A stretch of DNA of 35,121 bases from a virus. Taxonomy: Duplodnaviria; Heunggongvirae; Uroviricota; Caudoviricetes. Where the stretch lies: positions 1 to 35,121 of IMG/VR virus record IMGVR_UViG_3300037419_002054; one strand, given 5' to 3'. This document shows positions 9,001-12,000 of the stretch, one piece after another (positions within the stretch are counted from its first letter, which is position 1; each line of letters opens with the position of its first letter). Position numbers: made by a program.

Positions 9001-12000
9001 CCACCGTCGGTCCGAGGAGGACGACGATGGAGTAGCCTCTCACCTCCTCCAACACGAACTGGGAGAGGCAGGAACCGATTTCCTTCTCGGACGGCTCCTT
9101 GTGCATCCCCGCGCAGTGCACGAGGAAGGTCGAAGACACGTCGACGATCCCCTCAGCAGCCAGGAGGCTACGGAGGAGCTGTCCGGACTCCCCGGCAAGC
9201 GGGTAGCCGGCGGCCTGATCCGCCTTGCTCGGCAGGTCGCCCACCAGGATCATCTGCGTCTGGCGGCGATCGGGCGGAACGAACCCGGCGCGCTTCCGGG
9301 GGCAGGTATGACACCCGCCCTTCGGCTGCAGGACCTTCAGCTGGTTCCCCAGCAAATCTCCGAGTAGGCTCATACGCGGTCGAAGATGCTGACGAGGCGG
9401 CCCTTCGGGCGCTCCACCTCTTCGATCCCTCCGAACGCGCGCATCACCCGCCCGTAGTCTTCCGCCGCGGCCATCTTGATCAGCCCCTCGGGATCGGACT
9501 GCGCCCGCTCCCAAATCCGGTCGTATGTCGTCTTCAGCACAATATGGTTATGCGTGAGAATCCAGTGCGAGTATTCCTTCCCGACGTCCGGCAGGTGCTG
9601 GACGAACAGGCGGCAGGACTCGCAGGGGCACTGCCGCATGAAATCCCGGGTGATCGTCTGGCCGGCGCGCGTCACCTCCTTGATGACCTTGGGCGTAGCC
9701 ATCGTGAGCTCCGGGTCCAGCGCGAGCGCCTTCCGCGCGATCGCCGTCCGGGAGGCCCACGCGGAGTCGTACGTCACGAGGTCGAACTCCCCGGCGAGGA
9801 ACGAGAGGCCGAGGGCCAGGGCTACCGCCCGCGGTCCGGTGGTCTGGAGGAAGTGCACCCGCCGGATCTTCCGGTCGAGGCAGAAGCGCACGAGACGCGC
9901 AACCGCCACCGGGTTGTTCGAAGGGTGCGGCTTCACTCCCCAGCCCTCGCCCGGTCCGTTGAACGGGTAGATCTCCGCCACCCGGTCGAACCACTCGTCC
10001 ATCTGCGAGCGGGTCTCCCCCTGCACCACGCCCCACCAGCCGAAGCCCTCCCGGTCTCCCCGCTCGCGCAGGTGGTCCCGGTAGTACGGAAGGGCGCGGC
10101 GGACGTTCAGGAGCGTCCGACCGAGGGAGTTGTCCCAGTGATCCGCGGCGGAGCCGACGAACGTCACGCCCCCATGCCCGCGGTACGGAGGAATGTCAAG
10201 GATCACGCCGACGGTGCAGTTATCGATCTGCCACCGTATCACCCTCTCCGGATCGACCGACGCTCCCGTCGTCGCGACGGAGTACCCGCCGGAGTCACCG
10301 AAGATGTACGGGCTGGTCCGCGGCATCTCCTTGGCGTCTCCCCAAAACGGGTAGGAGAGCAGGACCGGACCCATCATCGGGAACGGGTCGATATCGGCCT
10401 CCTCCTTCGTAGCGAAGAAGCCGATCGGGTGCTGGATTACCGCGTCCAGAAAATGCTGACGCATCAGCCTCCCAGCAGGTCGAAGATGGACTGCGTACGG
10501 GCCGCGGTCTTCTGGACGGCCACCCCCTCCAGCTCGCGCATCACCTTCCCGTGGTCGTCCCGGGAGAACTTGGCCACGACGCGCTCCGGGTCCGCCTGCG
10601 CCGCGCTCCAGATGTTGTCGAAGAGGCGGAACAGCATCTCGTGGTTGTGCTGGATGAGGCGGTCCGGGAGCAGCACGTCCCCCAGCTCCGTCTCCCGCTC
10701 CTCGGCGAACCAACGGCACGCCGGGCAGTCGCACTTGGCCGACAGGAAGTATTCCGCGTTGAAGGGACGCGGCCGGTGCCCGACCACCTTCATCCCCTCG
10801 TCCCCCAGCACCCAGCAGTGGCGATTCGCTCCGTACTGCGACGCGGACGCCGAGTCGTACGTCGTCAGCTCGAGGCTGCGGGTGAGCTGCGCGAGGCCGA
10901 GGAGAACGCCGGCCGCACGGGCTCCGGTCGTCTGGAGGAAGTGCGCCCGCTTGATCCCGTGCTCGCGAACGAAGCGGAACAGGCGTGCCAGCACGACGAC
11001 GTTGTTGGTCGGGTGCGGCTTGAACGCCCATCCCTCCCCCTCGTCGGTGAACGGATAGATCTCCGAGACGCGCCCGTGCCACTCGTTCAGCTGGTCCCAG
11101 GTCTCGCCCTGGATGACGCCCCACCAGCGGAACGGGGTCCCCGCCTTCCGCGCTTCGAGGTAGATCGGAAGGGCGCGGCGGACGTTGCTCAGCGTGCGGT
11201 TCAGGGAGTCCTCCCAGTGATCCGCCGCGGAGCCCATCAACACCTTGTTGGCCGCCATCCGGTACGGCGGGACGTCGAGGATCGCGCCGCGCGTACATTG
11301 GTCTACCTGCCAGCGGATGACCGCCTCCGGGCAGAGGGACGCGCCCACGGTGACGAGGGAGAACCCGCCCGAGTCCCCGAAGAACGTCATCTCGGGGTTC
11401 ATGAGCTCGAAGTCCTCCGTCTTCCAGTAGTGGTAGGACCCCAGCGCGACCGGGCGGTACACCTCCGGGAAAGCGGGGTCCATCCAGTGCAGCGGGTACT
11501 TCGGCTTGTGCTTCCGCTGCATCTGGCTGATGCCCGGGATGATGGCGGGGAGGAACTGATGCCTCAGCTCCTCCCCGCGGATGACCCCGGCGCTCGGCTG
11601 GGGATCAGGCATCCAGCGCCACCGTCTCCCGCTGCAGGGCCTCCTGCCAGAAGGCCGTGTCGGCGTACGGGGTATCGTCCTTCACCCCGGCCTCCTCCAC
11701 CGCCTCCAGCCGCTCCACGCACGTCCCGCAGCGCCCGCAGTGGATCTCCCCGCCCGCGTAGCAGCTCCAGGTCTCGTGGATGGGCACGCCCAGCCGGCCC
11801 GCTTCGCGGGCGATGTCGGCCTTCGTCGCGTGGAGGAAGGGCGCCTCGAGCCGCACGGCACCCTCCAGAGACCACCGCTCCATCGCCGCGAACGCGCCGA
11901 TGAAGTTCGGCCGGCAGTCCGGGTAGATGAAGTGGTCACCGCCGTGCACCGCGGTCGCCACCACGTCCGCGTACTTCGCGGCCGCGACCGAGAACGCCAC

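Follow-up and report, generated by a model that had tools for sequence, protein, structure and literature searches.

Tandem transglycosylase-fold proteins of an uncultured phage end in a conserved peptide that is shared with the DNA polymerase and probably directed to the phage sliding clamp

The DNA analysed here, referred to as the window, is a stretch of 35,121 nucleotides from a virus of the Caudoviricetes (IMG/VR record IMGVR_UViG_3300037419_002054, positions 1 to 35,121). Its 35 kb lie at the start of a 99,121-bp contig with a G+C content of 66-70%. The window encodes two tandem proteins, A and B, with the fold of tRNA-guanine transglycosylase (TGT), immediately upstream of the gene for a DNA polymerase. 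A and B end in a short peptide that is conserved among their homologues and recurs at the N-terminus of the polymerase, and the sliding clamp encoded by the phage is probably the receptor of this peptide. The genes surrounding A and B are all on the minus strand. Those needed for the argument are:

6977-9373, minus strand: UDG-fused family A DNA polymerase (Pfam DNA_pol_A, E 6.9e-64; UDG, E 9.6e-10; DNA_pol_A_exo1, E 1.8e-9)
9370-10464, minus strand: TGT-fold paralogue A, 364 amino acids, probable DNA 7-deazaguanine transglycosylase (homology to B and family invariants)
10464-11612, minus strand: TGT-fold paralogue B, 382 amino acids (AlphaFold2 and Foldseek)
14451-14822, minus strand: small conserved protein with the N-terminus MAVDLFDSI, downstream of the clamp loader, the position of gp62 in T4 (relatives)
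15077-15961, minus strand: AAA+ clamp loader subunit (phrog_168, 'clamp loader of DNA polymerase', E 5.4e-61; Pfam AAA and DNA_pol3_delta2)
16575-17282, minus strand: sliding clamp, 235 amino acids, two domains, TTG start after GGAGA (fold comparison)

The stop of B overlaps the start of A, the two sharing one base (TGATG), and the stop of A overlaps the ATG of the polymerase gene. A ends in ...PKGRLVSIFDRV (...VSIFDRV; SIFDRV at 9373-9390, minus strand) and B in ...AARTQSIFDLLGG (...QSIFDLLGG; SIFDLLGG at 10467-10490, minus strand). The translations bear out the claim of a first-pass annotation of this DNA that both paralogues end in a SIFD peptide after an unconserved linker. SIFD is identical in A and B, the preceding 11-12 residues share no identity, and the linker before the peptide is flexible, about 12-20 residues long and unconserved. 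In the AlphaFold2 model of B, residues 363-375 are coil, followed by a short one-turn helix at 376-379, with the per-residue confidence (pLDDT) falling to 62. The GGAGG ribosome-binding site of A sits inside the last four codons of B (LLGG, 10467-10478, minus strand), and the extra GG behind the B motif may be there for the translation of A.

The peptide is kept in homologues. A search of 5.8 billion proteins returned 90 homologues, nearly all metagenomic and unnamed, which share 30-45% identity. Most of them end in [RV]-S-L-[LF]-D-x-[LIV] after a variable linker (for example RSLLDYL, RSLLDFI, VSLFDRL and GLLDFL), and the A-like ending [VR]S[LI]FDR[LIV] occurs in P0002, P0004, P0008, P0017, P0033 and others. 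A strict pattern within the last 14 residues is matched by 49 of the 90, with S in 33, L in 38, L/F in 44, D in 46 and L/I in 40 of these; the motif is followed by 0-2 residues in 44 of the 49. Most of the proteins that miss the strict pattern are near variants (SLLNFT, SLLALI, KLVDRI) or are cut at contig ends. In a maximum-likelihood tree built on the catalytic core, the tail is found in both deep branches. A and B fall into two old sub-clades, A into the old A-type one, and members of the two sub-clades occur together on other contigs as well (P0002 with P0032, P0003 with P0035, P0021 with P0030). Over a long time, then, the tail has been retained in both copies. A and B are old paralogues within a TGT-fold family that has not yet been named.

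One supported clade of 7 members truly lacks the tail (for example L007:1673-2671, L008:2912-3949 and P0080). Its proteins are shorter, at about 325-345 amino acids, and the members checked lie outside replication modules, next to HTH_17, DUF3102, NikA-like and RadC genes, a setting suggestive of a mobile element or of another type of phage. Where enough downstream DNA was available, the tail-less loci showed no adjoining polymerase gene. Homologue P0031 is fused to DUF3102.

The family has escaped sequence-based identification. A and B have no Pfam match at E <= 0.01, PF01702 and PF23859 included, and no PHROG match, and searches of NCBIfam and of PDB sequences with A and B gave nothing usable. 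TIGR00449 scored B alone, at E 0.039 and 12.8 bits, below its cut-off of 47.6, and homologue P0032 has a stored PF01702 match. A tblastn search of 50,697 GenBank phage records found no relative of B, and a search of IMG/VR found 2 loci only. The fold is clear: the model of B (pLDDT 90.5), when compared with the PDB by Foldseek, matched the archaeosine TGT 1j2b (E 3.6e-10), bacterial and human TGT and the DpdA structure 7ui4. The Foldseek probability was 1.00 for 1j2b, 1q2r, 7nq4 and 7ui4, with TM-scores of about 0.55-0.60, so the TGT-fold reading is right. By order of match, 1j2b and bacterial TGT stood ahead of DpdA 7ui4. D80-S81-G82-G83 and D253 (in a YDS context), whose Asp residues may be the counterparts of Asp102 and Asp280 of Z. 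mobilis TGT, are invariant among 63 family members and present in both A and B, and the zinc site C294, C296, C299 and H322 is kept in at least 90% of the 63 (CPCESC...HNH in A and CDCPAC...HNH in B). Judged by these comparisons, the A/B family is a separate TGT sub-family, a TGT-fold group overlooked by current hidden Markov models and absent among GenBank phages.

The clamp was equally silent in sequence searches, with no match in Pfam, PHROG, NCBIfam or PDB sequences and no tblastn match in GenBank phages, so that identification of A, B and the clamp needed fold comparison. A profile search found 306 clamp relatives as against 2 by a word-based search. The model of 16575-17282 (pLDDT 96.8, alignment of 96 relatives) matched T4 gp45 (3u61_F, TM 0.75/0.79; 6drt_A, TM 0.73/0.75), PCNAs (E about 1e-11) and beta clamps. 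T4 gp45 is the best match by TM-score, without detectable sequence similarity. On this model the protein is a two-domain sliding clamp of the gp45/PCNA type, the kind that forms trimers. Together with the loader subunit, this agrees with the earlier claim that the window encodes its own clamp and loader. All related loci with sufficient upstream sequence contain a clamp homologue, loader homologues in these loci are 38-53% identical, and the clamp/loader pairing is conserved.

When three copies of the clamp were folded with residues 351-382 of B, both partners with alignments, the tail peptide of B was predicted to lie in the interdomain pocket of the clamp. The docking score was 0.66, as compared with 0.02 for the best of 3 controls and 0.00 when the clamp was swapped for an unrelated protein; in the calibration of the method, 58 of 80 solved complexes and 2 of 110 mismatched pairs attained that mark. 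At least 75% of the contacts are common to the runs, the partner pLDDT is at least 56, and the three clamp copies folded with a mean pLDDT of 90. On the tail, the predicted interface comprises residues 369 and 371-380 and is centred on Ile376 of SIFD. This residue would be buried against clamp residues 35, 39, 40, 42, 118, 218, 229 and 231, with the clamp C-terminus (231-235) running along the peptide. The clamp contacts (35, 38-42, 114-121, 189-191, 216-218 and 229-235) belong to the two domains, to the beginning of the second one and to the C-terminus; we take this to be the binding site of PCNA-interacting peptide (PIP) boxes and gp45 ligands. Among clamp residues, those of the hydrophobic floor of the pocket (35, 42, 118, 229) and Ser231-Pro232 are conserved. 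The outcome of the multimer prediction is thus in line with the clamp docking that the first-pass annotation had suggested.

The same class of motif is found on the polymerase. Its N-terminal peptide, MSLLGDLLG, lies at 9347-9373 (minus strand), about 10 residues ahead of the UDG-like domain, as it does in L005 (11263-), L006 (11133-) and L003 (11235-). The pattern M[ST]L[LFM][DE]x[ILV] stands at the extreme N-terminus of the polymerase in 9 database homologues and about 18 distinct loci (for example MSLLDQV, MTLLDFV, MSSLLDAI and MTSLLDFI). The best match of the polymerase among GenBank phages is 27% identical by tblastn. When the tail of the TGT-like protein and the motif of the polymerase from the same locus were compared, 53 of 102 positions were identical as against 43.7 +/- 3.0 in shuffled pairs (P = 0.003). 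Such co-variation is expected if both peptides track one partner, although a few lineage-specific changes may drive the figure. These observations suggest that a family A replicative polymerase holds a gp45-like clamp through an N-terminal peptide, for which we know of no example.

Other proteins carry the peptide as well. The C-terminal motif occurs in 28 of the 3430 six-frame open reading frames (ORFs) of non-redundant related loci, and the carriers are TGT-like proteins, the gp62-position protein, Methyltransf_23 enzymes, a 224-residue CxxCxxCC protein (L001) and one likely spurious frame. The Methyltransf_23 enzymes with the tail end in KPPAPGGLLEGLK and are encoded just upstream of the TGT-like gene (L012:3452-4396, L013:1809-2822 and the first ORF of L038); an N6_N4 DNA methylase (L005:1842-2957) ends in ...QGLLSYI. 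The small protein at 14451-14822, which has no Pfam match and may be the small clamp-loader subunit, has an N-terminal D-L-F in which L5 and F6 are invariant among 6 homologues. In L003:7897-8388, L005:7530-7964 and L028:7244-7732 it has gained a linker and a C-terminal GG[LM]LDx[IL]; the copy in the window is without this extension. The N-termini quoted in the first-pass annotation, MSLLGDLLG for the polymerase, MAVDLFDSI for 14451-14822 and MRLQDLF for the ORF at 14053-14454 (GTG start), are all real. A strict scan of the genome for the N-terminal motif returned the 14451-14822 protein and three unverified starts, two of which are probably internal to longer ORFs. Outside the window, a 112-residue ORF with a GTG start at about 61581 (minus strand) has the motif-like N-terminus MGIFDIIAP.

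Based on these results, the tails of A and B are probably a conserved docking peptide shared with the polymerase, with the phage clamp as the most likely receptor. That the transglycosylases ride the phage clamp, as first proposed from the DNA, is consistent with tail conservation, the clamp fold, the predicted docking, the polymerase motif and its co-variation, and none of the three outcomes that had been named as refuting it was observed. Several points weigh against this conclusion. The support for clamp binding by the tails is in silico. The docking covers the tail of B alone, and the pLDDT of the docked peptide is modest, at 57-60. The docking job was also unlike those used to calibrate the tool, with its own alignments and three clamp copies, and the pass may stem from solved PCNA-PIP or gp45-peptide complexes that the model has memorised; what it indicates is resemblance to those complexes, not binding. 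As a set, the pocket contacts show no higher conservation than the remainder of the clamp (Mann-Whitney P = 0.80). Within the 99-kb genome, among 882 six-frame stop-to-stop frames of at least 60 residues, the pattern [LIMV][LFMI][DE]x[LIFVMWY] within the last 9 residues was observed twice, in A and B, against about 3.9 expected across all frames, so this count alone proves nothing. When tail presence is compared with the presence of a clamp gene, members of the tail-less clade and the other tail-less homologues checked have no clamp in the DNA fetched. The comparison is limited: every tail-bearing member belongs to a single phage lineage in which a clamp is always encoded, so tail and clamp do not co-occur independently, and there is one clear event of tail loss only. 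That DNA is the substrate of the A/B family we infer from the gene context described below.

The remaining genes of the region are:

11605-12330, minus strand: QueC-like (ORF translation; Pfam QueC of syntenic genes in relatives)
12327-12935, minus strand: FolE-like (ORF translation; Pfam GTP_cyclohydroI of syntenic genes in relatives)
12937-13338, minus strand: inserted ORF, 133 amino acids, between the FolE-like and QueE-like genes and overlapping the QueE start; by eye, it resembles a GIY-YIG-type homing endonuclease
13293-14060, minus strand: QueE-like (ORF translation; Pfam Radical_SAM of syntenic genes in relatives)
14053-14454, minus strand: ORF with a GTG start and the N-terminus MRLQDLF
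15961-16578, minus strand: Mu Gam-like protein
17344-18201, minus strand: primase (named from ORF translation and synteny)
18198-18980, minus strand: canonical DpdA, 260 amino acids, without tail (Pfam PF23859, E 3.8e-32; phrog_1279)
18977-20269, minus strand: DnaB-like helicase (named from ORF translation and synteny)

The names of the preQ0 genes (11605-14060) are based on our own ORF translations and on the Pfam families of the syntenic genes in relatives. All related loci long enough to judge share one gene order: DnaB, primase, a clamp homologue, clamp loader, preQ0 genes, a TGT-like gene, the UDG-polymerase, a gp32-like single-stranded DNA-binding protein (SSB), RecA and SbcC. In all relatives the TGT-like gene is flanked by the preQ0 genes on one side and by the polymerase on the other; most have a single copy, which keeps the tail. 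Neither the stored gene tables of the fetched loci of relatives nor a scan of nine selected ORFs gave any other Pfam DpdA or TGT match. The context of preQ0 genes and polymerase, together with this lack of another DpdA or TGT match, points to the TGT-like enzyme as the likely DNA transglycosylase of the lineage, an uncultured group of phages with genomes of about 100 kb in which the A/B family probably carries out 7-deazaguanine transglycosylation of DNA. The present phage has three TGT-fold enzymes, namely A, B and the canonical DpdA. The canonical DpdA, the Mu Gam-like gene and the ORF at 14053-14454 have no homologue in the related loci fetched and look like additions specific to this phage. 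The MRLQDLF of that ORF, which had been listed among the shared peptides, was for the same reason rejected as part of the system.

It is improbable that the family modifies tRNA like a true TGT, with its place in the replication module and its tail reflecting co-regulation only. The fold and zinc site are closest to those of tRNA-guanine transglycosylases, 1j2b and bacterial TGT matching above DpdA 7ui4, and a division of labour with the canonical DpdA of the window is conceivable. However, the gene tables for the loci of relatives list no Pfam DpdA or TGT match outside this family and yet the loci keep the adjoining preQ0 genes, the position directly upstream of the polymerase gene is constant, and a replisome-type peptide common to the polymerase makes little sense on a tRNA enzyme. 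It is very improbable that the tail serves the enzyme itself, in a dimer or A-B heterodimer, in autoinhibition or as a degradation signal, the likeness to the polymerase being a coincidence or a matter of shared composition. In favour of such a role, TGT enzymes exist as obligate dimers, the eukaryotic one pairing two paralogues in a heterodimer (PDB titles); A and B, too, are paralogues, encoded in tandem, and the final residues of B are also constrained by the ribosome-binding site of A. Nevertheless, most relatives are single-copy and still bear the tail, the same peptide is found on an unrelated polymerase, on methyltransferases and on the gp62-position protein, the tail co-varies with the polymerase motif, and in the monomer model it is free and of low confidence.

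The tail might also dock on a different hub, the host beta clamp (DnaN) being the most plausible candidate and the phage SSB or helicase further ones, which would preserve recruitment to replicating DNA; this is unlikely. Some beta-clamp motifs are of the QMSLL or QLxLF type, and the tail loosely resembles them; B has a Gln two residues ahead of the Ile (QSIFD), and the phage clamp pocket as a whole is not unusually conserved. However, most tails of the family have R, V or K at the position of the key Gln of the beta-clamp motif. The lineage always encodes its own clamp and loader, the protein adjacent to the clamp loader bears the same tail, and the model of the phage clamp accepts the peptide in the canonical pocket, with 0.66 as compared with 0.00 for an unrelated protein.

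If the phage clamp is the receptor, the tail peptide would insert in a hydrophobic pocket between the two domains of a gp45/PCNA-type clamp. The UDG-fused polymerase would use the same peptide at its N-terminus, and in relatives methyltransferases and the neighbour of the clamp loader would do likewise. Since the peptide is common to several proteins, the clamp would serve as a toolbelt. Whether loaded at phage forks or remaining on new DNA, clamps would recruit the transglycosylases to fresh duplex, where guanine would be exchanged for preQ0 or a derivative, presumably behind the fork. Because the peptide is predicted to plug into the clamp, 7-deazaguanine modification is probably tied physically to replication. 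More tentatively, one terminal peptide may make the phage clamp a platform for an N-terminally docked polymerase, one or two transglycosylases of a new TGT sub-family and DNA methyltransferases, with hypermodification as a built-in step of the replisome in which only clamp-bearing DNA is rewritten. If true, this would provide discrimination of self from non-self without sequence specificity; that tethering spares host DNA is a speculation. For the high or complete replacement reached by some phages, and for the avoidance of precursor spent on host DNA, a clamp-docking tail would offer a concrete mechanism, the recruitment of a transglycosylase to newly replicated phage DNA. The results also suggest that the motif offers a way of finding further replisome clients in metagenomic phages, methyltransferases for example.

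The maintenance DNA methyltransferase DNMT1 is recruited to replication foci by PCNA through a PIP box (Qxx[LIM]xx[FY][FY]). The present system is similar in that a DNA-modifying enzyme would be tethered by a short peptide and new DNA would be marked promptly, and methyltransferases of relatives carry the same tail; DNMT1-PCNA differs in being eukaryotic and in its motif and chemistry. Among phage proteins, the tail of RB69 gp43, of the SLFDMF type, is the form closest to the present motif. T4 gp43 ends in ASLDFLFG, and the LDFLF loop of T4 ligase binds the gp45 pocket (PMC6212786). The clients of T4 and RB69 gp45 (gp43, ligase, gp33 and gp55) likewise use a short hydrophobic and acidic peptide on a flexible segment, present on several proteins, to bind an outer pocket of a trimeric two-domain clamp (PMC6212786). 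Here a one-turn helix is predicted in the same kind of pocket, and the presumed clients include TGT-fold enzymes. Unlike T4 and RB69 gp43, the present polymerase belongs to family A and is UDG-fused, and its peptide is N-terminal rather than C-terminal. For UDG-fused family A polymerases, built-in insertions and not a clamp have been proposed as the processivity device (PMC13697223), from which the present lineage differs.

An enzyme of the kind proposed here, a clamp-tethered deazaguanine writer, has not been described according to the first-pass annotation, and full-text literature searches agree, as they turned up no paper that ties DpdA or TGT enzymes to a clamp. DpdA1-DpdA4 are described as free enzymes that act after replication, without a link to the replisome (PMC10516641). 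A and B share with DpdA (bDpdA and phage DpdA1-DpdA4; 7ui4; PMC10516641, PMC10164549) a TGT-derived fold, an association with FolE/QueD/QueE/QueC in phages and the presumed post-replicative exchange of guanine in DNA. Unlike DpdA, they have no PF23859 or PF01702 match, retain a complete CxCxxC..H zinc sub-domain and end in a clamp-type tail. The nearest parallel is a clamp-bound enzyme of another kind, the T4 alpha-glucosyltransferase, which is stated to co-purify with gp45 (PMC13216743, citing Sommer et al. 2004). It too is a phage DNA-hypermodifying enzyme on a phage clamp, proposed to act as DNA replicates; its chemistry is the glucosylation of 5-hydroxymethylcytosine and that of A and B would be base exchange, and no terminal peptide was identified for it here. 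In vivo, expression level and not clamp binding is the main determinant of the alpha/beta ratio (PMC13216743).

Finally, loci L039-L047, which have no clamp homologue nearby, encode distant TGT-like proteins (for example L039:10001-10540 and L040:10001-10834) that match the family profile over the core only, at E about 1e-20. These proteins end in acidic tails (...DDDGRIPLM, ...DDDRIGWA) that recall the C-termini of SSB.

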